Shown piece after piece: positions 9,448 through 54,796 of a stretch of 64,000 nucleotides of DNA (the first letter of the stretch is position 1; each line of letters opens with the position of its first letter). Under the pieces are notes generated by a model. The model had not been told where the DNA came from. It made no database searches and saw only the letters and a list, made by a program, of their open reading frames with translations. This stretch comes from an uncultured Anaerolineales bacterium (GTDB lineage: Bacteria; Chloroflexota; Anaerolineae; Anaerolineales; UBA11858): assembly GCA_964627755.1 (NCBI GenBank), contig CAZVIH010000076.1, positions 23,566 through 87,565 on the forward strand, given 5' to 3'. Made by a program: the position numbers and the translations under genes.

Positions 9448-12051
9448 TCATTCTTCAGTTTGATCATCTTGATCAGCTAGATATTTTTTCTTCCAGTTGA
9501 ACAACAGATTTAATGCCTCCAGGGGACTGAGTTCATTCATATCCAGCTTCCGCAATTCACCTAACAGCGGATTGGTTTTGGGGAATAAGGCCATCTGTTG
9601 GGGACTCTCCATATCCTGGGTGACTGCTTTGCCAGAAGACTTCTCAAGCTGCTGCAAGATCTCTTCCGCGCGCTGAGTCACAGTTGACGGCATACCGGCG
9701 ATTTGGGCTACATGAATCCCGTAGGATTTATCTGCTCCTCCAGCAGCGATTTTATACAAGAAAACGACCTTGCCATCAATTTCGCTAACAGAAACCCGAT
9801 AATTCCTGATCCCGGGCAGCAGATCTGGCAATTCGGTCAATTCGTGGTAATGAGTTGCAAAAAGGGTTTTAGCTCTTTTTGCAGGATGGTTGTGAATATA
9901 TTCAATCACAGCCCAGGCGATGGAAACCCCGTCATAAGTGCTTGTACCTCGCCCTATCTCATCCAAAATCAATAAACTGCGTGAAGTTGCATGGTTAAGG
10001 ATATTGGCTGTCTCAACCATCTCAACCATGAAAGTAGATTGCCCGGCGTGGATCTCATCCTGGGCGCCGATCCGGGTAAATATGCGATCAATCAAACCGA
10101 TCTTCGCAGCCTCAGCCGGCACGTAGCTGCCCATTTGAGCCAATAATACGATTAAAGCGACCTGTCTCAGGAATGTTGATTTTCCTGACATATTAGGGCC
10201 GGTCAATATCCGAATCCGTTCTCCCATTTCGAATATTGTGTCATTGGGAACAAAACCAGTTCCACTCAGAGTTCGTTCAACAACCGGATGCCGTCCACCA
10301 GTGATCTCCAGCAAATCTTCTTCGACTACTTCCGGGCAGACATATCCCTGGCTTGCCGCAGTTTCAGCCAGTGAGGCCAGAACATCTAGATAAGCCAAGA
10401 CCCGGGCGGTTTTCAACATTCGGTCTACTTGGACAGTCAGCCGTTCACAAACCTCCAGGAATATGCTTCTTTCGATTTCTTTGATCTGGTCTTCAGCATT
10501 AAAGACTTTGATCTCATAGTCTTTTAGCTCTGGGGTGACGTATCTCTCAGCATTCACAAGGGTTTGTTTGCGAATATAATGTTCCGGGACAAGCTCTGAT
10601 TTAGCTCTGGTCACTTCGATATAATATCCAAATATTTTATTGTGGCTCACCTTCAGAGTTTCAATTCCGGTTTTTTTTCTCTCAACTGACTCCAGGTTGG
10701 CAATCCAATCCCGGGCATGTTTTGTGGAGGAAAGGGTTTGGTCCAGTTCTTCTGAATAACCTGTTTTTATAATGCCGATTTTTCCCAGCACTGCAGGCGG
10801 ATCTTCCTCAATCGCAGAATTGATCAATTCAAAAGCATCTGAGCAAAGGGAGAAATTGCCAAAGAGTTCTCCTAAATATGTACCAGCCTCAAATTCATCT
10901 GGCAATAAGGATCGCAGACCAGGAAGTTGGGCCAATGTTTCCCTAATGCCTACCAGGTCACGTGGTTGGGCAGTCCCACCGCTAACCCTGTTGGCTAATC
11001 TCTCCAGGTCCTGGAAGACCTTGAGTTTTTCTCTCAATTCCGCCCGAAGCAATCCATCATTATAAAATACGGTCACTCCTTGATGCCTTTTTCTGATATT
11101 CTTCACATCCAAGAGAGGTTTGCTGACCCATTGCCTAATCAATCGTTTTCCCATGGGTGTTACAGTTTGGTCGAGTATTCCCAAGAGGGATCCAGCCGCA
11201 GTCCCAGCCCGAATGGTCTCTGTCAACTCCAGGTTTCTGCGCGTTGCCGCATCCAGGGTCATGAACTCTTCCAAACTGTACTTAGTTAAACTGGTCAGTA
11301 ATTTCAGCGAATCTGCCCTGGTTTGGGCCAGATACTGGAGGATAGCCCCTGCTGCCCTGATAGCAGATGGAAAACCTCGCACGCCATATCCATCCAGCGT
11401 TTTTACCTTAAAATGGGTCTGCAGCACATCAATACAGCGTTGCTCTTCAAAACGCCAGGCAGGGAACGAAGTAAAATGAGTTTGTAGGCCCTCGCCATCG
11501 ATTTCCGTGTTTTCCGGTAATAAGGTTTCTGCTGGGTTTAATCGTAAGAGTTCTGACCGTATCAGATCTTCCAGATGGTTTTCCTGGATTTCTGTTACTG
11601 CGAATTCTCCAGTTGTGATATCAACATATGCGATCCCGGCTCGATTTTCATCATATACCAGGCTGACGAGATAATTATTTCCATCACCTGGAAGCAAACT
11701 TGATTCCAGGATCGTACCTGGCGTGATCACCCGGACAACTTCCCTGGGCATTAATCCATTAACTGGGACATCACCGATCTGTTCACAAATAGCAACGTGG
11801 TAACCCTTATCGATCAAACGTGATAAATAATTCTCTGCTGCATGATGGGGGATTCCAGCCAGGGGAACCCTGGTACCTTTGCCAACATTACGGGAAGTCA
11901 AAACAATATCCAGAACTCGCGACACTATTTCAGCGTCTTCATCAAAGGTTTCATAAAAATCCCCCAACCGAAAGAAAATGATTGTTCCAGGGTATTGTTT
12001 TTTAATATCCAGGTATTGCCTTCTTACTGGAGTATCTCGTTCTTTGGACAT
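9448..12051 (-). CDS. mutS: DNA mismatch repair protein MutS
   Basis: 867 aa. N-terminal TPVRRQYLDIKKQYPGTIIFFRLGDFYETF mismatch-binding block. Walker A GPNMSGKSTFLRQ. STFMVEM and DEIGRGTSTYDG motifs. Confidence 0.95.
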   Translation of the reverse strand: MSKERDTPVRRQYLDIKKQYPGTIIFFRLGDFYETFDEDAEIVSRVLDIVLTSRNVGKGTRVPLAGIPHHAAENYLSRLIDKGYHVAICEQIGDVPVNGLMPREVVRVITPGTILESSLLPGDGNNYLVSLVYDENRAGIAYVDITTGEFAVTEIQENHLEDLIRSELLRLNPAETLLPENTEIDGEGLQTHFTSFPAWRFEEQRCIDVLQTHFKVKTLDGYGVRGFPSAIRAAGAILQYLAQTRADSLKLLTSLTKYSLEEFMTLDAATRRNLELTETIRAGTAAGSLLGILDQTVTPMGKRLIRQWVSKPLLDVKNIRKRHQGVTVFYNDGLLRAELREKLKVFQDLERLANRVSGGTAQPRDLVGIRETLAQLPGLRSLLPDEFEAGTYLGELFGNFSLCSDAFELINSAIEEDPPAVLGKIGIIKTGYSEELDQTLSSTKHARDWIANLESVERKKTGIETLKVSHNKIFGYYIEVTRAKSELVPEHYIRKQTLVNAERYVTPELKDYEIKVFNAEDQIKEIERSIFLEVCERLTVQVDRMLKTARVLAYLDVLASLAETAASQGYVCPEVVEEDLLEITGGRHPVVERTLSGTGFVPNDTIFEMGERIRILTGPNMSGKSTFLRQVALIVLLAQMGSYVPAEAAKIGLIDRIFTRIGAQDEIHAGQSTFMVEMVETANILNHATSRSLLILDEIGRGTSTYDGVSIAWAVIEYIHNHPAKRAKTLFATHYHELTELPDLLPGIRNYRVSVSEIDGKVVFLYKIAAGGADKSYGIHVAQIAGMPSTVTQRAEEILQQLEKSSGKAVTQDMESPQQMALFPKTNPLLGELRKLDMNELSPLEALNLLFNWKKKYLADQDDQTEE

Positions 12052-21042: not shown

Positions 21043-22617
21043 TTGCCTCTGGGGTTTGCAGCACAGAGGCAACCATATCCTTTTTCTGTTTTTGGTACAA
21101 TAAATTCCGTGAAAACCCAAATCATTCAGCTTGAGGCCCATGACGATACCATCTCCGTGAGAGATAAAATGGACTGGTCTCAAACTCCGCGAGTCCTGCT
21201 GGTCTGGCCAGAACGTGGGAAAGTTCTTCGCAATCGGCTGGATTTGATTTTATTGGAACGGTATTGTTCTTCCAATGGAAGCCAACTGGCCTTGTTAACC
21301 CATGATCCTGAAGTAACATTCCAAGCTCGTGAAGCAGGGATTCCAGTCTTCCAATCCCGAACAACTGCCCAACTTCAACCCTGGCGAAAGTCCTTCCGAG
21401 AATTCAAACGGAGGGATTTAGGAAATAAAACTGTCGAAGCCAAGGATATTGATTTGTTTTCTAGTGAACACAAACCTCTTCAAAAAGACTTGCCTCCCTG
21501 GACCAGGATCTCAATTTTCATCGCGGCAGTTTTAGCGGTCCTTGCCATTGCTGGGATGCTGCTGCCCAGCGCATCCATAACGATTGATAATGAGATCGAT
21601 CAAAAAAGCCTGATCATTCCAATCCGGGCTATCATTGGAGAGGATCAGGTTCAGATTTCGGGTCAGGTACCTGTCCGGGAACTGTCAATCACAGTAGAAG
21701 ATAATCAATCCCTCCCTGCCAGCGGGACAACAGCAATTCCGTTTGGATATGCCGAAGGAGAGGTAGTTTTTACAAACCTTGGTGAAGAAGCCATAACCAT
21801 TCCTGAAAATACAATTCTTAGCACAGACTCCGGAAACCCAGTTCAATTCCTCACATCTGACTTTAGAAAATTGCCAGCGGGTGTAGGTGAATCGATCACC
21901 GTCCAGGTAACAGCCATGTATCCCGGCAAATCAGGAAATATATTATCCAATCAAATCACAACGATCAGCACCTCTTTGGAAGCCGAAGTTGTTGTCAGTA
22001 ATCCGCTACCTATTACAGGTGGAACGGATATTTTTATTCCGGCACCCACCAGTTCAGATCGGCGGCACCTCAGTCGAAATCTATCTTTCAGCTTGAAAGA
22101 TTTAGCTGGAGAAGAGATTGGCAACCTACTGACTCAGAAAGACGTCTTGCTAACACCCAACCTGAGTGATTTTGAAATCATTGAAGAAATATTTACTCCC
22201 GAGGAAGGTGCACCTGGAGCTGTATTACAGGTGGAGCAGAAAGTCCAGTTTATGGTTCTTTACGCGTCTGGAGATGATCTACTTTCCCTGGCGACCAATC
22301 TGGTAATAGCCCAATATCAAGGGGATACATTCGAACCATTGCTGGAGAGTATCACCATATCCCAACTCTCATCCCCGGTTGCGGGGACCACTCAATCCTA
22401 TTCATGGAAAATGGAAGTTACCTGGAATGAACGGAAAGTCATGGATCAAAACGAGATCATACAAACGGTGTTGGGCAAAAAACCAGCCGAGGCGATGATC
22501 TATCTCCAGGAAAGCTTAAATCTCAATCATCCACCCCGGATTGAACTATATCCAAATTGGTGGTTAAGGATCCCGGCCCTGCCATTCCGTATAAATATCA
22601 ACGAGGGAGATAGTTAA
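21043..22617 (+). CDS. hypothetical single-pass membrane protein (cytoplasmic about 150 aa, one TM, about 350-aa beta-rich ectodomain); start uncertain
   Basis: Long ORF with the TM segment ISIFIAAVLAVLAIAGMLLP. I could not assign a family motif. Alternative starts are GTG 21109 and ATG 21169. Confidence 0.5.
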   Translation: MPLGFAAQRQPYPFSVFGTINSVKTQIIQLEAHDDTISVRDKMDWSQTPRVLLVWPERGKVLRNRLDLILLERYCSSNGSQLALLTHDPEVTFQAREAGIPVFQSRTTAQLQPWRKSFREFKRRDLGNKTVEAKDIDLFSSEHKPLQKDLPPWTRISIFIAAVLAVLAIAGMLLPSASITIDNEIDQKSLIIPIRAIIGEDQVQISGQVPVRELSITVEDNQSLPASGTTAIPFGYAEGEVVFTNLGEEAITIPENTILSTDSGNPVQFLTSDFRKLPAGVGESITVQVTAMYPGKSGNILSNQITTISTSLEAEVVVSNPLPITGGTDIFIPAPTSSDRRHLSRNLSFSLKDLAGEEIGNLLTQKDVLLTPNLSDFEIIEEIFTPEEGAPGAVLQVEQKVQFMVLYASGDDLLSLATNLVIAQYQGDTFEPLLESITISQLSSPVAGTTQSYSWKMEVTWNERKVMDQNEIIQTVLGKKPAEAMIYLQESLNLNHPPRIELYPNWWLRIPALPFRININEGDS

Positions 22618-26045: not shown

Positions 26046-28388
26046 ATGAAAACAAAACGTTTCTTTTGGGCGCTGATTGCCCTCTTGATCGTCGGTTCTC
26101 TCGTTCTCAGCGCTTGCGGCGGAGCAAAAGAAACTGCCGCTGTTGAAGAACCTGCTGCTGTCGGACCGATGGATGGTACTTACTACGAACGCGCCATGGC
26201 TGGCGAATTTGCTGGCACTGTTGTTACAATGACTGGCCCCTTCACTGATGAAGATGCTGTTAAATTTGATTCCTCTGTGGCTGCCTTCGAAGAAGCCACA
26301 GGCATTGACATTCAGTATGAAGGTTCCAAGGAATTCGAAGCCACCATCACCCTGCGTGTTGACGCTGGTGATGCCCCCGATATCGTGGACTTCCCTCAGC
26401 CCGGCTTGCTCGCCACTATGGTAGCTCGCGGCGCAGTTGTTGATGTATCCACCTTCCTGCCCCAATCCTCCTTTGATAATTACAATCAAAGCTGGTGGGA
26501 CATGGCCACCATGGCTGGACCCGATGGCGATATCATTGCTGGTGTCTGGCACCGCTTCAACGCCAAGAGCCAGGTCTGGTACCCCCAAGCCCAGTTTGAG
26601 GCTGCTGGTTATACCATTCCAGAGACCTGGGATGAAATGATCGCACTCTCTGACCAGATCGTCGCTGATGGCGACACACCCTGGTGTGTTGGCATCGAGT
26701 CAGGCGCAGCCACCGGTTGGCCTGCCACCGACTGGATGGAAGAAATAATGCTCCGCACAACCTCCCTCGAGAACTATGACGCCTGGGTGAGAGGCGACCT
26801 GCCCTTCAGCTCTCCCGAAGTCAAACACGCTCTCGAAGTTCTGGCCGACCTATGGAAGGATGAGTACGTCTATGGCGGTTCTGAAGCCATTGTCACCACC
26901 TTCTTTGGTGATGCCCCCACCCCCATGTTTGAAGATCCGCCCAAATGCTGGCTCCACAAGCAGGGCAACTTCATCACCAGCTTCTTCCCCGAAGGTGTTC
27001 AGTATGGAACCGATTATGGTTTCTTCTACCTTCCCGGTATTGATGAAGCATACGGTAGCCCATACCTGGTTGCAGGCGACATCATGGCCATGTTCAGTGA
27101 CCGCGATGAAGTCCGCGCTGTCATGGAATTCTTCACCCATGGTGAAGCTTTGAAAGAATGGCTAGCTGCCGGCGGCGCTCTTGCAATGCAGCTGGACACC
27201 GATCTGAACTGGTACAGCGACGAAGTCGAGAGAGGTATTGCCGAACTCGTTAACAATGCCACCTCCGTACGCTTTGATGGTTCCGACCTGATGCCCGGTG
27301 AAGTTGGTTCAGGCTCCTTCTGGACCGGTATGACCGACTTCTTCTCCGGTGTTGCTGATGAGGACACAGTGTTGGCTGAAATTGACGCCTCCTGGCCTCT
27401 GAAGGTTGCCGAAGGTGATCTCGGAAGCGAGACCAATCCAATCCAGGTTCTCTTTGTTCCGTCCGTCGATGCCAACATCATCGTTACCGGTGGTGAGATC
27501 ATGGCCGATGCCCTGTCTGCTGCCACTGGATTGAGCTTTGAGGTTTCAGTACCAACCTCCTACGCAGCGACCATCGAAGAGATGTGCGCTTCCCCGGATA
27601 AATCCATGGGCTTTATCCCAGGCTTGGGCTATGCCCTGGCCAGCCAGCTCTGCGGCGTGGACGTATCCTTTAAAGCTATTCGCTACGGATATCCTGTATA
27701 TTGGGCGGAATACATTGTTGCCCGCGATAGCGATTTCCAGACCCTGGAAGACCTGGAAGGCGCGAGCTGGGGCTACCCCTACCGAGCCTCAACCTCTGGT
27801 TACATGGTTCCCTATGTTGAATTGACCGAGTTGGGTGTTAAATGGGGTGATGAGATTGAGACTGGTGGTCACAACCAGACCGTTACTGCCGTCTACAACA
27901 ATGAAGTGGACTTCGGCACCGTCTTTTACAGTGTGCCGCTGACTCCTGATGGTCCTCCCCTTTTCACCTGGGATGAGTACCTCGCTGGCGACATTACTAC
28001 ACTGGACCAGTATCTACCTCCTGCTGATGTCGTTCCGAACTGTGCCCTCAATGAAGACGGAAGTAAACTCCTCTGCGATGGATACCGCATTCTGGATGCC
28101 CGTGCCAACATTCGCACCGAGGCTCCTGATGTGATACAGAAAGTACGCGTTCTGGCGATCTCCCAGATCGTCCCGAACGACACCCTGGCCTTTGGTCCTG
28201 ATTTCCCCGCGGATGTCCGCGCCAAGGTCGAGTCAGCCCTTCTTTCCTTCGCTGATACTGAAGAATGGAGTGCATCAATCGGCAACAACGACTTCTACGG
28301 CTGGACAGGTATTGAGCCTGCTACCGATGCCGAATACGATGTCGTTCGTCAGATGGTTATTCAAACTGGCTACGAGCTGGAAGAGTAG
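26046..28388 (+). CDS. lipoprotein fusing two substrate-binding domains: an N-terminal CUT1 sugar-type SBP and a C-terminal PhnD-type (phosphonate/phosphite family) SBP
   Basis: Lipobox LVLSAC|GG. Residues about 30-455 look like a family-1 extracellular solute-binding protein (PWCVGIESGAATGWPATDWMEEIMLR). Residues about 462-780 carry PhnD-like blocks (IQVLFVPS...YAATIEEM...GFIPGLGYALA...YWAEYIVARDSDFQTLEDLEGASWGYPYRASTSGYMVP...FGTVFYS). Confidence 0.8.
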   Translation: MKTKRFFWALIALLIVGSLVLSACGGAKETAAVEEPAAVGPMDGTYYERAMAGEFAGTVVTMTGPFTDEDAVKFDSSVAAFEEATGIDIQYEGSKEFEATITLRVDAGDAPDIVDFPQPGLLATMVARGAVVDVSTFLPQSSFDNYNQSWWDMATMAGPDGDIIAGVWHRFNAKSQVWYPQAQFEAAGYTIPETWDEMIALSDQIVADGDTPWCVGIESGAATGWPATDWMEEIMLRTTSLENYDAWVRGDLPFSSPEVKHALEVLADLWKDEYVYGGSEAIVTTFFGDAPTPMFEDPPKCWLHKQGNFITSFFPEGVQYGTDYGFFYLPGIDEAYGSPYLVAGDIMAMFSDRDEVRAVMEFFTHGEALKEWLAAGGALAMQLDTDLNWYSDEVERGIAELVNNATSVRFDGSDLMPGEVGSGSFWTGMTDFFSGVADEDTVLAEIDASWPLKVAEGDLGSETNPIQVLFVPSVDANIIVTGGEIMADALSAATGLSFEVSVPTSYAATIEEMCASPDKSMGFIPGLGYALASQLCGVDVSFKAIRYGYPVYWAEYIVARDSDFQTLEDLEGASWGYPYRASTSGYMVPYVELTELGVKWGDEIETGGHNQTVTAVYNNEVDFGTVFYSVPLTPDGPPLFTWDEYLAGDITTLDQYLPPADVVPNCALNEDGSKLLCDGYRILDARANIRTEAPDVIQKVRVLAISQIVPNDTLAFGPDFPADVRAKVESALLSFADTEEWSASIGNNDFYGWTGIEPATDAEYDVVRQMVIQTGYELEE

Positions 28389-31180: not shown

Positions 31181-31215
31181 AAACATCCCGGAGGTTTGAA
31201 AACTCCGGGATGTTT
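31181..31215 (+). terminator. 13-bp hairpin between phnE and larE
   Basis: AAACATCCCGGAG...CTCCGGGATGTTT, with no strong T tract. Confidence 0.4.
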
Positions 31216-31237
31216 ACTTAATGGTAGACTAGGTGAC

Positions 31238-32047
31238 ATGAAAAAGAAGCTGGAATCTCTGCGAAAATATTTATCCAAGATGGACCACACCCTGGTGGCT
31301 TATTCAGGCGGAGTGGACAGTACCCTCTTGACCAAAATTGCCCGGGAAGTTCTGGGTGAGAAAGTTACAGCTGTTATCGTTTCTTCTCCCACACTACCAG
31401 CCCGGGAACTTGAGGAAGCCCGCGAAATAGCTGCTTTGATAGGAGTAAACCTGGTTGAGATGGCAAGTGATGAAATTGACCTCCCGGATTATGCCGCCAA
31501 TTCTGAACAACGCTGTTATGTCTGCAAAAACCACCGCTATCAAATGCTGCGGAAATACGCTGCTGAAAACGGTTTTCAAACCATCCTGGATGGCAGCAAT
31601 GCGGATGATCTGGGCGATTTTCGACCCGGCCACCGGGCAGCACTTGAACATGATATATATAGTCCTCTTCAGGAAGTGGGTTTAACAAAATCAGATATCC
31701 GCAGCCTGGCAGAAGAAATGGACCTACCCAACTGGGATAAACCATCCTCCGCCTGCCTGGCATCCCGGATCCCTTATGGCACAAAAATCACACCCGAAGA
31801 CTTATTAAAAATTGAAAAAGCTGAGGATTTCCTTCTTCAGCTTGGTTTCCGACAACTGCGCGTCCGCCACCACGGTGATATAGCGCGCATAGAAATACAA
31901 CCAGAGATGTTTGATATACTGCTAAATAACAGGAAACTGATCACACAGAAACTGAAAGAGATGGGTTATTCTTATATTGCCCTTGATATTCTAGGGTTTA
32001 GGTCTGGCAGCTTAAATGAAGGAATAAGGAATAATGGATCAAATTAA
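31238..32047 (+). CDS. larE: LarE, ATP-dependent sacrificial sulfur transferase (PP-loop) for the nickel-pincer nucleotide cofactor
   Basis: PP-loop VAYSGGVDSTLL and the conserved cysteine block PSSACLASRIPYG. ATG at 31238 preferred over the TTG at 31196. Confidence 0.85.
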   Translation: MKKKLESLRKYLSKMDHTLVAYSGGVDSTLLTKIAREVLGEKVTAVIVSSPTLPARELEEAREIAALIGVNLVEMASDEIDLPDYAANSEQRCYVCKNHRYQMLRKYAAENGFQTILDGSNADDLGDFRPGHRAALEHDIYSPLQEVGLTKSDIRSLAEEMDLPNWDKPSSACLASRIPYGTKITPEDLLKIEKAEDFLLQLGFRQLRVRHHGDIARIEIQPEMFDILLNNRKLITQKLKEMGYSYIALDILGFRSGSLNEGIRNNGSN

Positions 32048-32798
32048 ACTGGAAGAAGTATTATCCTCTGTCAAAAAAGGGGAATTATCTGTTAACGAAG
32101 CTCTGAAACGTCTCAAATCATTACCTTTTGAAAACCTTGGGTTCGCCCGGCTGGATCTTCATCGTGATCTCCGGCAGGGTCTTCCCGAGGTGGTCTTCTG
32201 CCAGAATAAAACCCCGGAGCAGATCATTACGATCATGGAAAGACTCTGGGAACACCATGACCATGTCCTGGGGACCAGGCTTTCTCCCGAGGCCGCCAGT
32301 AATGTTCAAAAAGGATTGCCTCAAGCCCTCTATGATCCTATTTCTAGATTACTGCGTCTCTCGCGAGGAGAACGCCCACTTCCCGAGGATGATGCCCCTT
32401 TTGGAATGGTAATCTCTGGAGGCACCTCTGACCAGCCAGTGGCCGAAGAAGCTGCAATGACCCTGGAATTCCTGGGCAGCCGGGTGATCCGGGCCTACGA
32501 TATTGGTGTATCAGGAGTGCACCGCCTTCTTGACCAGCACGCGCTGCTTACCGAAGCAGACGTGATCATCAGTGTTGCCGGAATGGAAGGAGCTCTCACC
32601 AGTGTTGTGGGCGGCCTGGTCTCCTGCCCGGTTGTTGGTGTACCGACATCAGTCGGGTATGGCGCTAATTTCCAGGGGGTCGCTGCCCTGCTGGCCATGT
32701 TAAACGCCTGCGCTCCGGGTATCGCTGTCGTGAATATTGATAATGGGTTTGGTGCGGCAGTATACGCACATTCGATTTTGAGGAGAATTAACAAATGA
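32034..32798 (+). CDS. larB: LarB, pyridinium-3,5-biscarboxylic acid mononucleotide synthase (AIR-carboxylase-like)
   Basis: ARLDLHRDLRQGLPEVVFCQNK, GGTSDQPVAEEA, VAGMEGALTSVVGGL. Overlaps larE by 14 nt. Confidence 0.85.
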   Translation: MDQIKLEEVLSSVKKGELSVNEALKRLKSLPFENLGFARLDLHRDLRQGLPEVVFCQNKTPEQIITIMERLWEHHDHVLGTRLSPEAASNVQKGLPQALYDPISRLLRLSRGERPLPEDDAPFGMVISGGTSDQPVAEEAAMTLEFLGSRVIRAYDIGVSGVHRLLDQHALLTEADVIISVAGMEGALTSVVGGLVSCPVVGVPTSVGYGANFQGVAALLAMLNACAPGIAVVNIDNGFGAAVYAHSILRRINK

Positions 32799-33970
32799 AA
32801 GTCCTTTACTTTGACCTGATCGGCGGAGCGAGCGGTGATATGATCCTGGCTGCACTGATTGACGCTGGTGTTCCAGCTGATAAATTGGCTGAGATGCTGA
32901 CTGGTTTGAAGTTAGACGAATTCGAACTTAAGTCTGCCTCAATAAATAAAAATGGTTTTCAAGCTACTAAAGTAGATATCCAGGTAGGCAAACAACCCCC
33001 AGAAAGACATTTGAAAGAAATCCTTGATGTGATCCAAAATAGTTCTCTTCCTGGACCGATCCGCGACAGGGCAACCAAGATCTTTCAAAAGATCGCGGCT
33101 GTAGAAGCGGGCATTCATAACAAACCGGTTGATCAAATCCACCTCCATGAACTGGGCAGCACTGACACCATAGTTGATGTGACCGGAGCGCTGCTGGCCC
33201 TCGACTATCTAGGTGTGTCTCACATATATGCTTCTCCCATTCCCCTGGGCAGCGGTTTTATCGATGGTGCACATGGTCAGATCCCCCTGCCGGCCCCAGC
33301 TACTATTGCATTATTAAAGGGTTTGCCGGTAAGGAAAACTGAAATTAAAGCTGAACTCATTACACCAACTGGAGCTGCCTTGCTGGCTGAGCTTGTGGAT
33401 GATTTTTCCCCACCCCCGGAGATGACGATTGACAAAATAGGATATGGGGCTGGAACCCGTGATTTGCCAATACCAAACCTGCTCCGGGTGATGATTGGAG
33501 AAATAGCGGAAAAAAGAAATCAGACCCTAGAAAAATTAATCCTGTTGGAAAGTAATCTGGACGATATGAACCCGGAGATTTATCCTTATGTTATGAATTT
33601 ATTATTTAATGCAGGAGCACTGGATGTCTGCCTGCTTCCAGTTCAGATGAAAAAGAACCGTCCTGGTACTCAGATCCAGGTCCTGGTAAATATTCAAAAC
33701 GTACAAGATATGAAGGATATTCTTTTTCAGGAGACTAGCACGCTGGGTATCAGGCAAACGTTAGTTGACAGATATTCACTTCCCAGGATTATCCAAGAAG
33801 TATCAACTACTTATGGAGTGGTCAGAATTAAGGTTGCTGGGGAAGGGACCAATTATCAAAAAGTATCTCCCGAGTTTGAAGATTGTCAAAAATTAGCCCG
33901 GGAGAATCATATACCCATCCAAAAGGTCTATCAGGAAGCGATCAAAGCCTATTACGAAGGGAATAACTGA
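32795..33970 (+). CDS. larC: LarC, nickel insertion protein (single unfused ORF)
   Basis: MKVLYFDLIGGASGDM, HLHELGSTDTIVDVTG, MKKNRPGTQIQVL. Overlaps larB by 4 nt. Confidence 0.85.
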   Translation: MKVLYFDLIGGASGDMILAALIDAGVPADKLAEMLTGLKLDEFELKSASINKNGFQATKVDIQVGKQPPERHLKEILDVIQNSSLPGPIRDRATKIFQKIAAVEAGIHNKPVDQIHLHELGSTDTIVDVTGALLALDYLGVSHIYASPIPLGSGFIDGAHGQIPLPAPATIALLKGLPVRKTEIKAELITPTGAALLAELVDDFSPPPEMTIDKIGYGAGTRDLPIPNLLRVMIGEIAEKRNQTLEKLILLESNLDDMNPEIYPYVMNLLFNAGALDVCLLPVQMKKNRPGTQIQVLVNIQNVQDMKDILFQETSTLGIRQTLVDRYSLPRIIQEVSTTYGVVRIKVAGEGTNYQKVSPEFEDCQKLARENHIPIQKVYQEAIKAYYEGNN

Positions 33971-38124: not shown

Positions 38125-38188
38125 TTTCACATTATAATCTATGGTATAAATTATTAACAGGTTTTGATCGTTAACCCTGAGGTGCATC

Positions 38189-39331
38189 ATGGCACAAACG
38201 ATACTAATCATTGATGATGATATTGATACCTTAAAGCTTGTTGGCATCATGCTTGAGAGGAAAGGTTTTCGTATCCTGGCTTCCACAACCGGGGAGAAAG
38301 GCCTTAAATTGGCTAACAAGGAATATCCTGACCTGATCCTTCTGGACGTTATGATTCCGGATATCAATGGTTATGAGATCGCCAAGTCCATCCGTGCCAA
38401 TCCAGCCACTGAAAACACTCCCATTATCATGTTCACTGCCCGCAGTCAAGTGGATGACAAAGTAGAGGGCCTGGAGGCCGGAGCGGATGCCTACATCACC
38501 AAACCTGCCCGCCCCAGAGAATTATTTGCCCAGGTTAATTCCGTCTTAAAACGTGCTCCACAACGTTCCTCAGCTTCCGCAACATCAGTTGTTGAGAAAG
38601 GCACTCTGATCGGCATCATATCTGCCAAAGGTGGTCTTGGCAACTCTACTCTGGCAACAAACCTGGCGATTGAAATTCACAATCAATCAGATCAAGAGGT
38701 CATTCTATCTGATTTCAGGCCCGGCCAGGGAACGATCGGTATGGATCTTGACATGCAGAACACCAGCGGCTTGATCAAATTACTGGATGAAGAACCTGGA
38801 AGCGATATATCTGATTTCTTCCCGAACATTTTTATGGAACATAAATCCGGTATTAAGACCCTTTTATCATCCCATCATCCTTCGGATTCAAAATACATCA
38901 CTCATGTGGAGCAATTTCACCAGATCGCACAAGAGCTCCCCAAGTGGGCTGCTTATACCATACTAGACCTTGGTCCTTCGTTAACACCGATCAACTCAGA
39001 AATCCTTCCAGTGTGTGACAAGATCCTGATCTGCCTGGAACCAGCACCTGCAAATATTATCCAGACCAGAATCCTGATCCAAGACTTGATCAACAGCGGG
39101 ATAGGAGAGAGCCGTTTCGTGACAATTTTAATCAACCGGCAGATTTCTGGCGTGCAGCTCAGTTGGGAACAAGCTGAAAACCAGCTGGAGAGAAAGATTG
39201 ACCAGATGTTTACACCAGTACCAGAACTGGCTTATCAAGCAGCTCTGAAAAATATACCCATCATTCAGCGTCCTGAAGAGAGCATGACGGCAGATCAATT
39301 CCGTAGCCTTGCGAAACTGGTCCTGGATTAA
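38189..39331 (+). CDS. response-regulator receiver fused to a CpaE/TadZ-like ParA/MinD-fold domain with a deviant Walker A
   Basis: REC domain with the IIDDDID, LLDVMIPD, MFTAR and YITKP residues. It is followed by ISAKGGLGNSTLATNLA, where N replaces the usual GK[ST] lysine. Confidence 0.75.
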   Translation: MAQTILIIDDDIDTLKLVGIMLERKGFRILASTTGEKGLKLANKEYPDLILLDVMIPDINGYEIAKSIRANPATENTPIIMFTARSQVDDKVEGLEAGADAYITKPARPRELFAQVNSVLKRAPQRSSASATSVVEKGTLIGIISAKGGLGNSTLATNLAIEIHNQSDQEVILSDFRPGQGTIGMDLDMQNTSGLIKLLDEEPGSDISDFFPNIFMEHKSGIKTLLSSHHPSDSKYITHVEQFHQIAQELPKWAAYTILDLGPSLTPINSEILPVCDKILICLEPAPANIIQTRILIQDLINSGIGESRFVTILINRQISGVQLSWEQAENQLERKIDQMFTPVPELAYQAALKNIPIIQRPEESMTADQFRSLAKLVLD

Positions 39332-39338
39332 CTGGATT

Positions 39339-40121
39339 ATGCTTCCCATTACAGAAAATAATACCCTGATCCAAAAAGCCTCAAACCTGATCTGTGAGGC
39401 GAATTATTGTGTTGCATTATCTGGTGCTGGAATCTCCACACCTTCTGGGATTCCCGATTTTCGTTCACCGGGCAGTGGTATCTGGACTAAATATTCACCT
39501 ATGGAAGTTGCTTCCCTGAGTGCTTTTCGCTATCATCCTGACCGTTTTTATGATTGGTTGCGACCATTTGTAGGCAGGTTATTCGCGGCGGACCCAAATC
39601 CGGCCCATCATGCTCTCGCCAGATTGGAAGAGAATAACTTTCTGAAAGCCATTATCACCCAGAATATTGATGCTTTGCACCAAAAAGCTGGCTCAAAGAA
39701 TGTCATTGAAGTGCATGGCACATATCAAACGCTCACCTGTCTGGGCTGTTATAAGCAGGTAAATACCAGTCAGGAAATTCTTACTGCCCTATTAAACGAT
39801 GCCAAAAAACCATACTGCCCCTACTGCGGAGAACTGCTGAAACCGGATATCATTCTTTATGAAGAGCAGCTTCCAGCAGAGAAATGGAGGTCTGCCAGAA
39901 AAGAGATTATGGCCTGCGACCTGTTATTAATCCTGGGCTCCTCTCTGACTGTGACACCGGCATGTGATCTGCCGTTAACAGCTCTCGGGAATGGAGCAAA
40001 GATCATCATCCTGAATTATTCCCATACTCATCTTGATGAACAGGCTGACGTCAGCCTGCAGGGAGATCTGGCTGAAGTTTTACCCCTCCTCACCGCGAAG
40101 GTACTCAATGAAAAAGAATAA
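39339..40121 (+). CDS. cobB: NAD-dependent protein deacylase, Sir2/CobB family
   Basis: GAGISTPSGIPDFRS, QNIDALH, EVHGT, and a Zn ribbon CLGC...CPYCG. Starts 8 nt after the REC-CpaE stop. Confidence 0.85.
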   Translation: MLPITENNTLIQKASNLICEANYCVALSGAGISTPSGIPDFRSPGSGIWTKYSPMEVASLSAFRYHPDRFYDWLRPFVGRLFAADPNPAHHALARLEENNFLKAIITQNIDALHQKAGSKNVIEVHGTYQTLTCLGCYKQVNTSQEILTALLNDAKKPYCPYCGELLKPDIILYEEQLPAEKWRSARKEIMACDLLLILGSSLTVTPACDLPLTALGNGAKIIILNYSHTHLDEQADVSLQGDLAEVLPLLTAKVLNEKE

Positions 40122-41301
40122 AACCAAACCGACCCTGATAAATAGCTATCAAAAACTCATCAATATATCTTGTGACCTGGCATCGGAATTGGATCTCAAT
40201 ATCCTGCTATCCAAGATTGTGAATGCAGCCAGTGAGGTTTCAGATTCAGAAGAGGCTTCCATCTTGATGTTCGATCCCGCAAAGAACACACTTTACTTCC
40301 AGGCTGCGACCAATTTGGACACAGGGCTCAAACGGGGATTGGTCGTTCCTCTCGAGGAAAGTATAGCTGGTTGGATTGTTAAAAACCAAAAACCAATTAT
40401 CGTTGATGACCCCCAGAAGGATGTACGACATTTCAACGATATTGACACTATGACAAATATCAAAACCGATTCACTCATGGGTATACCTCTCTTGTCAAAG
40501 GGAAAAGTGATCGGTGTGCTTGAAGTGATTAATAAAAGGGGAGGAAAATTCACCCGAGAAGATCAGGACATTATGCTGGCATTGGGAGCCCAGGCCACAG
40601 TGGCTATCGATAACTCGCGTTTATTCCTGCAGTCTGATCTGATCGGTGAATTTGTCCACCAGATCCGCACACCCCTTTCTGCTTTGAATGCGGCTACTCA
40701 TTTGTTAAAAAGTAACCGAGTAGATGATCAACAAAAGAAGAAGATGATCGATATTATGGAAGCGGAAATAGATGCGCTGTCCGATATGTCAACATCATTC
40801 CTGGACCTGGCTCGTTTGCAATCCGGAAGAAAACAATATTCTGTTTCTGAGTTTAGCATCCGCGAACTGCTTACTGAATGTTACGATATCTTCTTCTCAG
40901 ACACTCAACATCAAGCCATCAAGTTCAACCTTGATCTGCCAGAGACACTCCCCCGTGTCACAGGTGATCGGAAGCAGCTAAAACAAGCCCTTACAAATTT
41001 ACTTAATAATGCCGTCAAATACAATCATGAAGGTGGCGAGATATCCCTCAAGGCCCTGGCAAAGAAGAAACAGGTTATCATCTCGATTTCCGATTCAGGA
41101 TTGGGCATCCCTGAAGATGAACAATCTCTGATCTTCGAAAAATTCTACAGGGTAAGAAGCCACCGGGATCAGGTTCCCGGTACAGGGCTGGGGCTGTCCG
41201 TTGTAAAACAGATCATCACAGACCATGGTGGTGAGATAACACTTACCAGTGAAGTGAATGTAGGAACTACCTTCACTGTTATCCTGCCAACCGATAAATA
41301 A
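40108..41301 (+). CDS. cytoplasmic GAF-domain sensor histidine kinase
   Basis: GAF domain (SILMFD...GIPLLSKGKVIGVLEVINK), H-box FVHQIRTPLSAL, N-box NLLNNAVKYN, G-boxes DSGLGI and GTGLGLS. No TM segment. Overlaps cobB by 14 nt. Confidence 0.85.
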   Translation: MKKNKTKPTLINSYQKLINISCDLASELDLNILLSKIVNAASEVSDSEEASILMFDPAKNTLYFQAATNLDTGLKRGLVVPLEESIAGWIVKNQKPIIVDDPQKDVRHFNDIDTMTNIKTDSLMGIPLLSKGKVIGVLEVINKRGGKFTREDQDIMLALGAQATVAIDNSRLFLQSDLIGEFVHQIRTPLSALNAATHLLKSNRVDDQQKKKMIDIMEAEIDALSDMSTSFLDLARLQSGRKQYSVSEFSIRELLTECYDIFFSDTQHQAIKFNLDLPETLPRVTGDRKQLKQALTNLLNNAVKYNHEGGEISLKALAKKKQVIISISDSGLGIPEDEQSLIFEKFYRVRSHRDQVPGTGLGLSVVKQIITDHGGEITLTSEVNVGTTFTVILPTDK

Positions 41302-41307
41302 TCACCT

Positions 41308-41850
41308 ATGCGATCCTTCCTGAAAAAAAACTGGATATCCTCCCTGCTTCTTGTTGTGATCTTGATTCTGGCATTGATTGCTTATTCACGAGGGGGATGG
41401 CATTTAATATATGAGGGAATCAAAAACGGAATCACTATCTTCGTCACGGAGATCCCCCTGCTGGTGGCCGCCTTTTTAACAGCAGGCCTGATTCAATCCT
41501 TGGTAAAAAAAGAATTTATTACTCGTTGGCTTGGACAGGAAGCCGGCATTAAAGGGATACTGCTGGCTTGCCTGGGAGGTGGACTCATTCCTGGTGGACC
41601 TTATGTCTACTACCCCATCGCTGGTGCTCTTTTATCCTCTGGCGCAGGATTGGGAGTCCTGGTTGCTTTTATATCCGCTAAGAATCTCTGGTCAGTATCC
41701 AGGCTCCCTTATGAATTTGCTCTCCTCGGATCAAGTATCACCATTCGACGATATTTGATTACTTTTTTAATCCCACCGCTGCTTGGTATTCTGGTCGAAT
41801 GGCTTTTCGGTGGATATATTCAAAAGATCCGGGAGAATGTTAAAGAATGA
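41308..41850 (+). CDS. half-size permease subunit (COG0701/UPF0718-like), first of a paralogous pair
   Basis: About 5 TM helices. Conserved block GGGLIPGGPYVYYPIAGALLSSGAGLGVLVAFISA. Confidence 0.55.
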   Translation: MRSFLKKNWISSLLLVVILILALIAYSRGGWHLIYEGIKNGITIFVTEIPLLVAAFLTAGLIQSLVKKEFITRWLGQEAGIKGILLACLGGGLIPGGPYVYYPIAGALLSSGAGLGVLVAFISAKNLWSVSRLPYEFALLGSSITIRRYLITFLIPPLLGILVEWLFGGYIQKIRENVKE

Positions 41851-42332
41851 GTACCTCTACAATCATTCTCTGGATTATCACTCTGATCTTGTTGATTTTC
41901 AGTTGGAAAAAGGGAGCAGATTCGATCAAACGGGGAACTCAGTTAGCCTGGTCAACTACAAAAAAGAACGGTCTGTTAATTATTCTGGCCTTTATTATCG
42001 CAGGATTTGTAAATATACTCTCCCCCAAAGACCTGGTGACCGCCTGGATCGGGCCTGATTCAGGCTGGCGGGGTATCATAGCAGCCGAATTCTTTGGTAC
42101 TCTTCTTCCAGGTGGACCTTATGTTGTTTTCCCAATTATCGCCGTTCTGGTCCAGGCCGGGGCCGGTCTCGGCCCGGCAATCTCTCTCATCACAAGCTGG
42201 TCAACCCAATCGCTTCTGACAATCAGCTTTGAACTTCCCTTTATGGGGTGGCGTTTTACAGCCATTCGCTGGACGATCGGACTATTAGTCCCCCTGCTGG
42301 CAGGATTCACAGCTGTCTTGTTATGGGGATAA
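41847..42332 (+). CDS. half-size permease subunit, second of the pair
   Basis: Block FGTLLPGGPYVVFPIIAVLVQAGAGLGPAISLITS is homologous to the upstream gene. There is a 4-nt ATGA overlap. Confidence 0.55.
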   Translation: MSTSTIILWIITLILLIFSWKKGADSIKRGTQLAWSTTKKNGLLIILAFIIAGFVNILSPKDLVTAWIGPDSGWRGIIAAEFFGTLLPGGPYVVFPIIAVLVQAGAGLGPAISLITSWSTQSLLTISFELPFMGWRFTAIRWTIGLLVPLLAGFTAVLLWG

Positions 42333-50937: not shown

Positions 50938-51390
50938 ATGGAAAATATGTCAGATTGCAATACCCCTAAAATTCTCATCCTGGCAACCACTTCGGGTGGA
51001 TATGCTGGAGCGGATGCAGTGGGACAGCTGCACACAGACTATCCCAACAACACCTATATTCTGCCAGTGCTTTGCCCCAGTATGTTTAACGAGGATTTTT
51101 ATCTCAGGATATTTAAACGCGGTATTGATGGTGTGATCGTCATGTACAGCGGAACAGACAGTCCTTATAAAGGTGGACCCGAACGGGCTGCCGAGTTAAT
51201 TAACAAAACCTACCCGAAAATGAAAGAAAACGGTATAGATACTCGCCGGTTGAAGCTAACCGCGATATGTACAGTATGTACCAAACCTTTCCTGAAAGAA
51301 GTCAATCAAATGAACACGCTGCTCCGGGAAATTGGATTTGTCAAGGATGAAATGGCGTCCTTTTCTGGAGAGGAAGCGGTTGCAGCCTGA
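50938..51390 (+). CDS. MvhD/FlpD-like (hydrogenase iron-sulfur subunit family) protein with the usual cysteine ligands substituted
   Basis: KILILATTSGGYAGADAVG...VLCPSMFNEDFYLRIFKRGIDGVIVMYSGTDSPYKGG aligns with the MvhD pattern K-I-V-x-F-C-C-N-W-C-S-Y-x-G-A-D...G-A-D-G-V-x-V-x-G-C-x-x-G-D-C-H. The Cys positions read A/T/S/G/S/S here. Confidence 0.6.
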   Translation: MENMSDCNTPKILILATTSGGYAGADAVGQLHTDYPNNTYILPVLCPSMFNEDFYLRIFKRGIDGVIVMYSGTDSPYKGGPERAAELINKTYPKMKENGIDTRRLKLTAICTVCTKPFLKEVNQMNTLLREIGFVKDEMASFSGEEAVAA

Positions 51391-51456
51391 TGGCTCGGAA
51401 AAAATGATTAGAAGAATAGGTTTAATAAAGTCGCAAACAAAAGAGGAGATACTGCC

Positions 51457-52779
51457 TTGAGAAAAATTCAAGTTGATGCTCTTGTCGTTGGCGGCGGCAT
51501 CGCCGGGATGCAAACTGCTCTTGATCTCGCGGACCAGGGCTACCAGGTCGCACTGGTAGAAAAGGAAGCCAGTATTGGCGGCAAAATGATTGCCCTCAGT
51601 AAAGTTTTCCCAACCCTGGACTGCTGCAGCTGCATCACAACTCCCAAGATGTCTGCCGTAGCGCATCATTCCAATATTCAATTACTTACCTATCACGAGG
51701 TTCAAACTCTCAATAAGACAGATGCCGGATTCAGTGCTGAGGTGTTGAAAAAACCCCGCTATGTCAATGAAGATGACTGCACCGGCTGCCGGCAGTGTGA
51801 ATACGCCTGCCCTATCAACCTGCCAAGCGCCTTTGATCTTGACTATGGCGCAACCAAAGCTGTCCGGGTCCCATTTTCCACCGCCGTACCACAGTATGCA
51901 GTCCTGGACATCGAAAATTGCATCCTGTGCGGAAAATGTGAAAAAGCCTGTCCGGTGAATTGCATTGATTTCACCCAGCAGCCGGAAACGATTGAGATCC
52001 AGGCCAAGGCAGTCATCCTGGCAACCGGCTTTGAGACTACATCAACACAGGCCAAGAAGGAATACGGCGCAGATAAAAATCGGAATGTCATCAATGCCAT
52101 GTTCATGGAACGCCTGCTGGCGCCCACCGGGCCCTATGGTCGAGTGATTCGCCCCGGTGATGGTAAAGAGCCGGATTCGATTGCTTATGTTCAGTGCGCG
52201 GGATCAAGGGACGCCACCTTAGGTGTGGAGTACTGCTCCCGGGTTTGCTGTATGTACGCAATCAAACAGGCCATGCTCCTGGCGGGTTCTCTCCCTATGG
52301 CAGATATCACCATTTATTACATGGATATCCGCACCTTCGGCAAAGGATATGAACAATTCTTCCAAAATGCCAAGGCAATGGGCATTGAATTTGTGAAAGG
52401 CAAAGTCGCTTCAATAAAGCAGGACGAAAATCAGAACCCGGTGCTCCGGGTAGAACTGATCGATGATGGTTCACGGGTCGAAGAAATTACCCATGATTTA
52501 GTTGTGCTCTCAGTTGGATTGCTGCCCCAGTATGATCCGGAAGCGATTTTCAATGTATCCCCGGGAGATGATGGTTTTATTGATATTCCCAAGATTAATA
52601 CCTCTCCCTGCCTGACAAAACGCCAGGGTATATTTGTCGCTGGCACATCTGGCGGCCCAATGGATATCGTAGACAGTATCATCATGTCTGGATCAGCGGC
52701 AGCAGAAGCAGCGGCTTATATCGAGTCTCAAAAAGAATCCCTGACACTGAGTAAAGAAAGTGAGGATGTCTATGCCTAA
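51457..52779 (+). CDS. HdrA-family FAD/FeS flavoprotein, QmoA-like (440 aa)
   Basis: TTG start after an AGGAG RBS. FAD motif VVGGGIAGMQTALDLADQG. HdrA cysteines LDCCSCITTPKM and CAGSRD...YCSRVCCMYAIK. Inserted ferredoxin CTGCRQCEYACP / CILCGKCEKACP. Confidence 0.8.
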   Translation: MRKIQVDALVVGGGIAGMQTALDLADQGYQVALVEKEASIGGKMIALSKVFPTLDCCSCITTPKMSAVAHHSNIQLLTYHEVQTLNKTDAGFSAEVLKKPRYVNEDDCTGCRQCEYACPINLPSAFDLDYGATKAVRVPFSTAVPQYAVLDIENCILCGKCEKACPVNCIDFTQQPETIEIQAKAVILATGFETTSTQAKKEYGADKNRNVINAMFMERLLAPTGPYGRVIRPGDGKEPDSIAYVQCAGSRDATLGVEYCSRVCCMYAIKQAMLLAGSLPMADITIYYMDIRTFGKGYEQFFQNAKAMGIEFVKGKVASIKQDENQNPVLRVELIDDGSRVEEITHDLVVLSVGLLPQYDPEAIFNVSPGDDGFIDIPKINTSPCLTKRQGIFVAGTSGGPMDIVDSIIMSGSAAAEAAAYIESQKESLTLSKESEDVYA

Positions 52780-54796
52780 CAAAGATAATGAAGAAATCAG
52801 GATTGGCGTATACACCTGTTATTGCGGGGGAAATATCAGCGATGTCGTCAATTGTGAGCTGGTTTCAAAGAAATTAGCCGAATTGCCCAACGTGGTTGTC
52901 TCAAGAACCAATATGGCTATGTGTTCTGATGTAGGCCAGTCACTGATCGAAGAGGATATCAAAGAAAATGGAGTCAATCGAGTGGTGATTGGCGCCTGCG
53001 CTCCCTCCCTTCACGAACAGACCTTCCGCGGCACTGTTGCCAGGGCTGGATTGAACCCATACTTGTATTATCATGTTGGAATTCGGGAACAGGACAGCTG
53101 GGTGCATAGAAGTGACTGTGAAGGTGCAACAGCAAAGGCAATCCGCTTGATGGCCTCCGGTTTGGCTAAAGCCAGATTGCTTGATCCCCTGGCCCCAATT
53201 CAGCTGACCGCAGAAAAACACGCCCTGGTTATTGGTGGCGGAATCGCGGGTTTAAAGGCAGCCTATGATATCGCCCGTAGAGGACTGCGGGTTACATTAA
53301 TCGAAAAAACCCCTTTCCTGGGAGGCAGGGTTGCCCAACTGGACACTCTCTTCCCTACCAATGAAAATGCAAAAGACACTTTACATGACCTGATCAACAA
53401 GGTTGCATCCCATCCCAATATCGTTATCTACACTCAAGCCCAGGTCAAAGGTGTAACAGGATATGTAGGCGACTACCAGATCCAGATCCAACAAGAATCC
53501 CGGGGAGTGGATGATACGAATGCTGAAAAGATCATGGCAGCCTGCGAGCAGACAGTCCCAGACGAGTTCAATTACGGATTAACCAGCCGTAAAGTAGTTT
53601 ACCAGGCCTATCCGGGTTGTTTTCCCCATACTCCAGCAGTGGACTGGGAGAATTATGATGGAAAACCAATCAAGGTAAATGGGGAGGATATCATCCTCAA
53701 GAATGATCCAGTATCCATTCCCCTTCATGTTGGAGCGATTGTTGTCGCAACCGGGTTTGATCCCTATCAACCCCGGCAGGGAGAATTCGGATTTGGTGAA
53801 ATCCCTGAAGTTGTCACCCTCCCGACTCTTATTCGCCATTTATACTTGATGGAAGATGGTCAAGAGTTTGTCTGGAACGGTCACCCCGTGCGTGATATTG
53901 CCATGGTGCATTGTGTGGGAAGCCGGGAAATTGATGGTGTTCATGAACCCCAGGAAGATGGAAAAGTGAACAATTACTGCTCCCGGGTTTGCTGTACTGC
54001 CAATTTACATATGGCGAATACCCTCAATGAACGTTTTCCCGGACTGAATATTTATAATCTTTACGAAGATATTCGGACTTACGGACGCGGCCATGAACAA
54101 TATTATATGGACGCACTGGATCAAATGGTCCGTTTCCTCCGTTTCCATGGAGATGACCGACCGACAGTTAAAAAAGCCCAGGCAGGCGACACTCACCCGG
54201 TGCTGGTCGAGATTCGCGATCATCTGACCAAAGGTCAGGAGCTGGAAATCGCTGTGGATCTGGTTGTTCTGGCAGTTGGCTTTATGCCCAGGGATATTGA
54301 TGACCTTGTAAAGATGCTCAAAATCTCCCGCGGAAACGACCGCTTCCTGGCAGAAATTCACCCCAAACTCCGGCCAGTCGAAACAGCTGTACCGGGAGTG
54401 ATCCTGGCAGGATCTTCTCAGAGCCCCATGAACGTGCAGGAAAGCTGTTCCGCGGCATCAGCAGCGGCAGCAAAAGTATCTGCGCTGCTAAGTTCGGGCC
54501 AGGTGGAACTGGAACCTTTTGTTGCCCAGGTCGATCTGGAAAAATGCACTGGGACGGGAGAATGTGTGACGGTCTGCCTCTATGAAGGTGCCGTCACTCT
54601 CAAGGATGTAGAAGTGAACGGACAAATCCTCAAACGTGCAGTGGTATCCCCTGCAAACTGTACCGGTTGTGGATGCTGTGTCAGCGCCTGTCCCAACCAG
54701 GCCATCGAAGTCCAGGGTTGGACCATCCCGCAGTACGACGCTATGCTGGACGCACTTGCCATGGATCTAGATGAAATGATGGAGGTAGCAAAATGA
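52766..54796 (+). CDS. HdrA-family FAD/FeS flavoprotein, QmoB-like (about 676 aa) with a C-terminal 2x[4Fe-4S] ferredoxin domain
   Basis: N-terminal VYTCYCGGNISD...IGACAPSLHE. FAD motif VIGGGIAGLKAAYDIARRG. HCVGSRE...YCSRVCCTANLH. C-terminal CTGTGECVTVC and CTGCGCCVSACP. Start ambiguous (GTG 52760, ATG 52766 or ATG 52772); it overlaps the upstream stop. Confidence 0.8.
   Translation: MSMPNKDNEEIRIGVYTCYCGGNISDVVNCELVSKKLAELPNVVVSRTNMAMCSDVGQSLIEEDIKENGVNRVVIGACAPSLHEQTFRGTVARAGLNPYLYYHVGIREQDSWVHRSDCEGATAKAIRLMASGLAKARLLDPLAPIQLTAEKHALVIGGGIAGLKAAYDIARRGLRVTLIEKTPFLGGRVAQLDTLFPTNENAKDTLHDLINKVASHPNIVIYTQAQVKGVTGYVGDYQIQIQQESRGVDDTNAEKIMAACEQTVPDEFNYGLTSRKVVYQAYPGCFPHTPAVDWENYDGKPIKVNGEDIILKNDPVSIPLHVGAIVVATGFDPYQPRQGEFGFGEIPEVVTLPTLIRHLYLMEDGQEFVWNGHPVRDIAMVHCVGSREIDGVHEPQEDGKVNNYCSRVCCTANLHMANTLNERFPGLNIYNLYEDIRTYGRGHEQYYMDALDQMVRFLRFHGDDRPTVKKAQAGDTHPVLVEIRDHLTKGQELEIAVDLVVLAVGFMPRDIDDLVKMLKISRGNDRFLAEIHPKLRPVETAVPGVILAGSSQSPMNVQESCSAASAAAAKVSALLSSGQVELEPFVAQVDLEKCTGTGECVTVCLYEGAVTLKDVEVNGQILKRAVVSPANCTGCGCCVSACPNQAIEVQGWTIPQYDAMLDALAMDLDEMMEVAK

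Follow-up and report, generated by a model that had tools for sequence, protein, structure and literature searches.

A conserved regulator–sirtuin–kinase gene cassette of Anaerolineae with a possible link between phosphorelay signalling and lysine deacylation

The DNA analysed here (hereafter "the window") is a 64-kb stretch from the genome of an uncultured Anaerolineales bacterium, and its region 38189–42332 carries five co-directional open reading frames (ORFs) that encode a response regulator, a Sir2-family deacylase (sirtuin), a histidine kinase, and two half-size permeases, A and B, all on the forward strand like the features placed within them below. The regulator and sirtuin genes are separated by a gap of 7 nt (39331 to 39339), the start codon of the kinase gene (ATG at 40108) precedes the end of the sirtuin gene (40121) to give a 14-nt overlap, a 6-nt gap separates the kinase gene from permease A (41301 to 41308), and the two permease genes overlap by 4 nt in an ATGA motif (41847–41850). 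A previous reading of the letters and ORFs without database searches (the original prediction) had described five co-directional, closely joined genes with these domains, which agrees with the ORF coordinates and the matches to Pfam and NCBIfam; its spacings of −14, 6, and −4 nt are exact, but the first gap measures 7 nt and not 8 nt. Close junctions are by themselves ordinary in operons, and it is their retention in distant relatives that exceeds chance. We focus on the first three genes, the regulator–sirtuin–kinase triad, which recurs in relatives of the window with widely differing flanks.

The regulator (38189–39331, 380 aa) was assigned from Pfam matches to Response_reg (98 bits) and AAA_31 (29.2 bits, cut-off 27), an AlphaFold2 model with a mean pLDDT of 93.3, and Foldseek comparisons. 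It is composed of a receiver domain (aa 5–116), a disordered linker (aa 128–133), and an atypical MinD/TadZ-like P-loop domain (aa 139–380). We aligned 75 representatives of its family, which are mostly 31–46% identical to the window protein apart from three close relatives at 74–83%. The receiver residues D9, D10, D53, T/S83 (T83 in the window), and K105 are conserved in 97–100% of these sequences, in line with the earlier statement that the receiver has every phospho-acceptor residue. Asp53, the predicted phospho-acceptor (codon 38345–38347), is an aspartate in 74 of 75 representatives, and the candidate acetylation site Lys105 (codon 38501–38503) is invariant in all of them. Lys105 is the equivalent of CheY K109 and PhoP K102, and by analogy with PhoP it might be acetylated in the window regulator. 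The family is large, with 7,930 of 8,000 scored candidates reaching E ≤ 1e-20, and many of its members are automatically annotated as "CpaE" or "CheY-like" (at JGI as "pilus assembly protein CpaE").

The C-terminal domain of the regulator had been described as a ParA-like output, and this holds for its MinD/ParA-superfamily fold but not for a canonical ParA ATPase, since the domain is of the atypical TadZ type that lacks the Walker-A lysine. In its Walker-A-like motif KGGLGNST (38627–38650), the canonical lysine is replaced by Asn152, so that the second of the two lysines in the deviant Walker A of ParA and MinD (KGGxxK[ST]) is missing. Among the 75 representatives, V, T, A, N, L, or I occupies position 152 but K never does; K/R147, S/T153, and the Walker-B residue Asp260 are kept. 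The resulting family-wide pattern (K/R)GGxGx(S/T) is that of TadZ/CpaE, for which a consensus of K/RGGXGXS/T has been reported (bioRxiv 10.64898/2026.07.08.737194), and the window motif conforms to it. TadZ/CpaE proteins also share the domain order, with a receiver fold at the N-terminus and an atypical MinD-like P-loop domain behind it, and the only PDB structure that Foldseek matched across both regulator domains is the TadZ of E. rectale (3FKQ). For the C-terminal domain, the best structural match is 3EA0, a ParA-family protein of Chlorobium tepidum (target-normalised TM-score 0.86, rmsd 2.8 Å), which is also the best hit of a sequence search with the window output domain alone (E 6.5e-06). 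A search with the family profile of this domain ranks archaeal MinD (1HYQ) first and 3EA0 just behind (E 2.4e-25), with TadZ outside the top 60. Like the window protein, 3EA0 lacks the Walker-A lysine (SAKGGDGGS), but it has only one domain and no receiver, and to our knowledge its function is uncharacterised.

The regulator could thus be a plain TadZ/CpaE protein of a Tad (Flp) pilus, in which case the cassette would control pilus placement; such a role would be compatible with the deacylation model developed below. This reading draws on the domain order, the TadZ consensus, the two-domain match to 3FKQ, and the JGI label carried by many homologues, but we consider it improbable. No tad or cpa gene was seen among the annotated ORFs of the window (to approximately 58 kb, minus a few small ORFs), and the gene tables for the 15-kb loci of its relatives list none either. 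Moreover, the receiver is canonical, predicted to be phosphorylatable, and paired with a kinase, unlike the atypical and non-phosphorylatable receiver of TadZ, and the C-terminal domain is closer in sequence to archaeal MinD and 3EA0 than to TadZ. A DNA-binding domain is missing from the regulator, which therefore probably acts not on transcription but by altering how its TadZ/MinD-like domain interacts, oligomerises, or is positioned. Directly upstream of the family regulator in one related locus (L094) lies a longer paralogue of 440 aa (L094:5455–6777, forward strand) that combines a receiver with a CbiA/ParA-type domain, which suggests that receiver–MinD-like proteins are able to work in pairs.

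The sirtuin (39339–40121, 260 aa) was identified as an NAD-dependent protein deacylase of the Sir2 family by Pfam (SIR2, 170.5 bits, cut-off 24), by NCBIfam subfamily NF001753 (266.9 against 243), and by full-length alignment to the closest proteins of solved structure, Sir2-Af2 (1MA3) and Sir2Tm (1YC5). The catalytic His126 (codon 39714–39716), the NAD-binding motifs GAGIS and TQNID, and the four cysteines of the zinc module (CLGC at aa 134–137 and CPYC at aa 160–163) are invariant among 15 operon sirtuins. These intact catalytic and zinc motifs agree with the canonical deacylase of the original prediction, but its assignment to the CobB type goes too far, since its 269.1 bits for the CobB equivalog NF040867 fall short of the cut-off of 320. 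As judged from its sequence, the protein is thus best called a Sir2-family deacylase of the Sir2Tm/Af2 kind rather than a proven orthologue of E. coli CobB. Sir2 domains are common as effectors of defence systems, and the locus might in principle be an anti-phage system with a Sir2 NADase effector. We regard the probability of this as practically negligible, since the protein has a zinc module and the full set of deacylase motifs and sits in a vertically inherited housekeeping context. PADLOC models gave no meaningful match (best score of the sirtuin 17.5 bits, with no matched stretch), and the defence reading was rejected.

The histidine kinase (40108–41301, 397 aa) comprises a GAF domain (aa 28–168), HisKA, and HATPase_c (aa 286–396) according to Pfam, with HisKA and HATPase_c above their cut-offs. 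Together with the absence of any membrane segment visible in the sequence, the GAF match upholds the view of a soluble kinase with a GAF sensor. His184 in the H-box VHQIRTPL (codon 40657–40659) is invariant in 17 orthologues, as are the H-box, N, G1, and G2 motifs as a whole (the last three represented by NNAVKYN, DSGLGI, and GTGLGL in the window protein) and some residues of the GAF domain. The invariant catalytic motifs of the sirtuin and the kinase imply that both enzymes are under purifying selection. In two distant relatives, a second GAF-containing histidine kinase is encoded divergently beside the regulator gene on the reverse strand, with HAMP and GAF domains in one (L093:3505–6810) and GAF and PAS domains in the other (L095:5240–6808), and the regulator may thus receive input from more than one kinase.

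Conservation of the triad was assessed in a family set of 20 loci including the window, in which regulators are 31–83% identical to that of the window and the flanks differ. Besides the three close relatives L005–L007, the set draws on nine full-length matches from species-representative genomes, five loci from a clade at 44–50% identity, and three from more distant clades (among them Thermoflexia and relatives of Aggregatilineaceae). One of the nine, L016 (27% identity), was later dropped from the family since it has no AAA_31 match and is paired with a MASE3/HisKA_3 kinase. L005–L007 (73–83% regulator identity) are syntenic with the window over the entire neighbourhood and hence uninformative on functional linkage. 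A GAF–HisKA kinase gene follows that of the regulator or the sirtuin in all 19 assessable loci, the contig of L014 ending too early to tell. Kinase and regulator are therefore well supported as a conserved pair, and because their adjacency is kept throughout we infer that they are cognate for phosphotransfer. The sirtuin gene lies directly 3′ of the regulator gene, and before the kinase gene wherever this is readable, in 17 of the 20 loci; the complete triad is found in the window, L005–L010, L012, L013, L088–L092, L094, and L095, while L014 shows regulator and sirtuin before its contig ends. A gene order unique to this one genome, which the original prediction had named as an outcome that would speak against it, is hence not what we see, since the order persists amid different flanks that include MutL, zinc alcohol dehydrogenase, methyltransferase, GreA, FtsK, and others.

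The junctions within the triad are tight in most loci. Regulator and sirtuin genes overlap by 4 nt or are separated by 1–16 nt in 11 of 15 triad loci scored, with wider gaps of 47–171 nt in L006, L092, L094, and L095, and the sirtuin and kinase genes typically overlap by 8 nt (14–17 nt in the clade of the window). Across 12 complete triads (66 pairs), the pairwise identities of the three proteins correlate closely (regulator–sirtuin 0.86, regulator–kinase 0.86, sirtuin–kinase 0.88), and this co-variation fits inheritance of the triad as a unit. As a control, we used 71 loci with ordinary receiver genes (855 kb); they are the generic receivers among 80 loci obtained by a full-length-alignment scan that had keyed on a receiver-domain motif. 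None of the 71 contains a Sir2 homologue. Before the last loci were added, the comparison of 14/16 family loci with 0/71 control loci gave a Fisher p of approximately 2e-14, which overstates the case given that the family loci are phylogenetically non-independent. Neighbour-joining analysis of the regulators places L011, which has no sirtuin, amid sirtuin-bearing clades, a position that indicates secondary loss of the gene rather than a late gain, and the deepest branch, L014, has a sirtuin. Taken from these sequence comparisons, a long-retained, translationally coupled accessory with a predicted intact catalytic site is a well supported description of the sirtuin.

It is unlikely, though a serious contender, that this accessory is a general housekeeping deacylase that is merely co-expressed in the operon and has no specific action on kinase or regulator. 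The protein is a plain single-domain Sir2 whose nearest relatives of solved structure, Sir2-Af2 and Sir2Tm, are general deacetylases, it is the only Sir2 within the 64-kb window, and three lineages do without it in the operon. TilS, XerC, MutL, and zinc alcohol dehydrogenase also recur near the family loci, pointing to strong long-range synteny in the group as a whole. A mere bystander fits poorly, however, with the way in which the sirtuin gene has held its exact place between its two partners, with stop and start codons that overlap at either end, down to 31–40% regulator identity while other neighbours turned over. The divergence of the sirtuin also tracks that of both partners, and the control loci lack sirtuin genes.

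Alternatively, the sirtuin could be part of the sensor, either in a complex with the kinase or through a GAF domain that reads O-acetyl-ADP-ribose, nicotinamide, or NAD+, which would make the cassette a reporter of NAD+ or acylation flux. The overlap of sirtuin and kinase genes is the most constant junction of the triad (8 nt in L008, L010, and L088–L092, besides the longer overlap in the clade of the window), which fits stoichiometric co-translation; the sirtuin–kinase correlation is the highest of the three; and invariant GAF residues recur in all 17 kinase orthologues. Nevertheless, we give this purely inferential reading little credence. We know of no GAF domain that binds NAD+, nicotinamide, or O-acetyl-ADP-ribose, the GAF domain is kept in the kinases of the sirtuin-less loci, and sirtuin and kinase genes do not overlap in L094 (28 nt apart) or L095 (2 nt apart).

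On balance, we lean towards a different reading, namely that the three core genes form a signalling cassette that has been passed on vertically within the class Anaerolineae and in which the sirtuin deacylates a lysine in one of its two partner proteins and so makes signalling dependent on NAD+ and acetyl donors. In this scheme, the cytoplasmic GAF-sensor kinase would phosphorylate Asp53 of the adjacent regulator, and the phosphorylated regulator would act via its TadZ/MinD-like domain through protein–protein interaction or positioning. The Sir2 deacylase, encoded between these two genes and translationally coupled to both, would strip acyl groups from a lysine in either partner protein, with Lys105 of the receiver as the obvious candidate on the regulator, so that signalling would respond to NAD+ and acetyl-donor status besides the GAF ligand. 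The arrangement suggests lysine deacylation as a built-in third input to a phosphorelay across Anaerolineae, and the dual control by phosphorylation and acetylation that had been proposed from the letters appears plausible by analogy with known systems. The precedents that had been invoked for it are real: E. coli CobB deacetylates CheY (PMC2883070), and acetylation of RcsB is documented (PMC3013089). For PhoP, acetylation of K102 that depends on acetyl phosphate abolishes phosphorylation and phosphotransfer, with no deacetylase known for this site (PMC6455138).

Several points weigh against this scheme. Action of the sirtuin on the regulator or the kinase is proposed by analogy, and Salmonella CobB did not act on PhoP K102, the counterpart of Lys105 (PMC6455138). 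E. coli CobB is described as promiscuous (PMC4335977), and the operon sirtuin shows no extra domain or other obvious feature by which it would differ from the general Sir2Tm/Af2-type deacetylases. L011, L015, and L093 have the regulator followed by the kinase without a sirtuin, and because these three lineages keep the pair alone, the sirtuin is dispensable and accessory rather than obligatory. The 17 sirtuin-bearing loci among the 20 do not count as independent events and are compatible with a single ancestral insertion followed by retention. An acetyltransferase gene was found in none of the loci examined. Comparison of sirtuin-bearing with sirtuin-less loci revealed no distinguishing lysine, with K91 and K105 conserved in all, though the latter group is a small sample of three. 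A more specific version of the scheme is accordingly one that we put forward only tentatively, as possible and on the unlikely side: the sirtuin may be a dedicated third component that keeps Lys105 or a kinase lysine free of acylation derived from acetyl phosphate or acyl-CoA, the relay would fire only when the GAF ligand coincides with sufficient NAD+, and its output would be the assembly or positioning of a TadZ-like scaffold instead of transcription.

Taken singly, the components of the locus all belong to types already known: the two-component system, the Sir2 deacylase, the atypical MinD domain of TadZ-like form, and the ArsP_1 permeases. Cross-talk of lysine acetylation with aspartate phosphorylation is documented (PMC2883070, PMC3013089, PMC4778762, PMC6032018, PMC6455138), and the regulation of CheY, RcsB, PhoP K201, and RprY by CobB shares with the window the pairing of a Sir2-type deacylase with a receiver-containing regulator. 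CobB is, however, a global enzyme encoded elsewhere, whereas the operon sirtuin gene is fixed between regulator and kinase, its substrate being putative. A comparable pairing of a response regulator with an enzyme of the acetylation cycle is found in the rprY-pat operon of Porphyromonas gingivalis, where rprY is co-transcribed with an acetyltransferase gene (PMC6032018). In contrast to the window, with its eraser and retained kinase, the P. gingivalis system has the acetyltransferase and has lost the kinase, and RprY binds DNA whereas the window regulator has a MinD/TadZ-like output. As the original prediction had supposed, the arrangement appears undescribed: neither a keyword search of 8 million full texts nor a review of bacterial sirtuins yielded a description of a sirtuin gene fixed in a two-component operon or of a phosphorylatable TadZ-like regulator family of Anaerolineae.

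Cross-talk of acetylation and phosphorylation in response regulators, the physiological relevance of which is under debate, is known only from global enzymes that act in trans. A sirtuin kept between kinase and regulator across a bacterial class offers a natural three-protein system for direct tests of such cross-talk. In addition, our analysis defines a large family (thousands of sequences) of predicted phosphorylatable TadZ/MinD-like regulators, for which a role in the cell organisation of filamentous Anaerolineae is a candidate function.

The triad of the window is followed by two half-size ArsP_1 permease genes, permease A (41308–41850, 180 aa; 42.7 bits, profile positions 12–136 of 294) and permease B (41847–42332, 161 aa; 42.8 bits, profile positions 11–130 of 294), each of which exceeds the cut-off of 32.3 for ArsP_1 (PF03773). 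A complete ArsP_1 protein consists of two repeats, and permeases A and B, approximately 31–36% identical to each other, both cover the same half of the profile. Instead of the "split permease" of the earlier description, they are thus two paralogous half-transporters, as opposed to one gene broken into an N-terminal and a C-terminal part. The pair is seen only in the window, in L005–L007, and in L001–L004 where the contig extends far enough, which is a clade of at least 73% regulator identity to the window with synteny over the whole neighbourhood. Beyond this clade, its position is taken by MutL, zinc alcohol dehydrogenase, methyltransferase, or GreA. This restriction to the window's own clade leaves the supposed link of the regulator output to a transporter unsupported, and the permease pair is a recent lineage-specific addition outside the conserved core and its mechanism.

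The five genes are flanked by housekeeping genes, with larE/B/C, a DUF218 gene, a toast-rack protein, xerC, and a divergent tilS upstream and a convergent cinA and liv-type ABC transporter downstream. The window, as far as it was annotated, showed no pilus, chemotaxis, or acetyltransferase genes. A scan for promoters and terminators was uninformative: 15 promoter-like sites compare with an expectation of 8.4 ± 3.5, and 4 terminator-like sites with one of 4.0. The likely start of tilS at 38130 (reverse strand) leaves only approximately 58 nt (38131–38188) before the regulator start, and the longest tilS ORF as well as one gene call overlap that start, so that a pair of divergent promoters would need to fit into the same very short stretch. 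Divergent tilS recurs upstream of the family genes in the window, L008, L015, and L088–L092, convergent mutL recurs downstream in L011, L013, L015, L088, L090–L092, and L095, and zinc alcohol dehydrogenase recurs in L009, L090, L092, L094, and L095, with xerC or ftsK sometimes nearby. These recurrences may be plain housekeeping synteny or may hint at a link to chromosome or cell-cycle functions.

Elsewhere in the window, an IS-type transposase ORF with an rve integrase core and HTH_21 (8173–8982, reverse strand) adjoins mutS (9448–12051). A 524-aa ORF (21043–22617, forward strand) with a weak Baseplate_J-like match (E 2.6e-08) lies between alaS and ruvX/yceG, an odd site for a phage-baseplate-like domain. 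The 780-aa ORF at 26046–28388 (forward strand) fuses two solute-binding domains, SBP_bac_1 and Phosphonate-bd, and is located within the sole clearly higher-G+C stretch of the window (0.536 against approximately 0.46). The upstream larE, larB, and larC genes for synthesis of the nickel-pincer cofactor (31196–33970, forward strand) have no larA-type racemase among their annotated neighbouring ORFs. Finally, in the cluster at 50938–54796 (forward strand), a gene for an MvhD/FlpD-like protein precedes two genes for HdrA-like flavin/iron-sulfur oxidoreductases, a composition that suggests an electron-bifurcating module.

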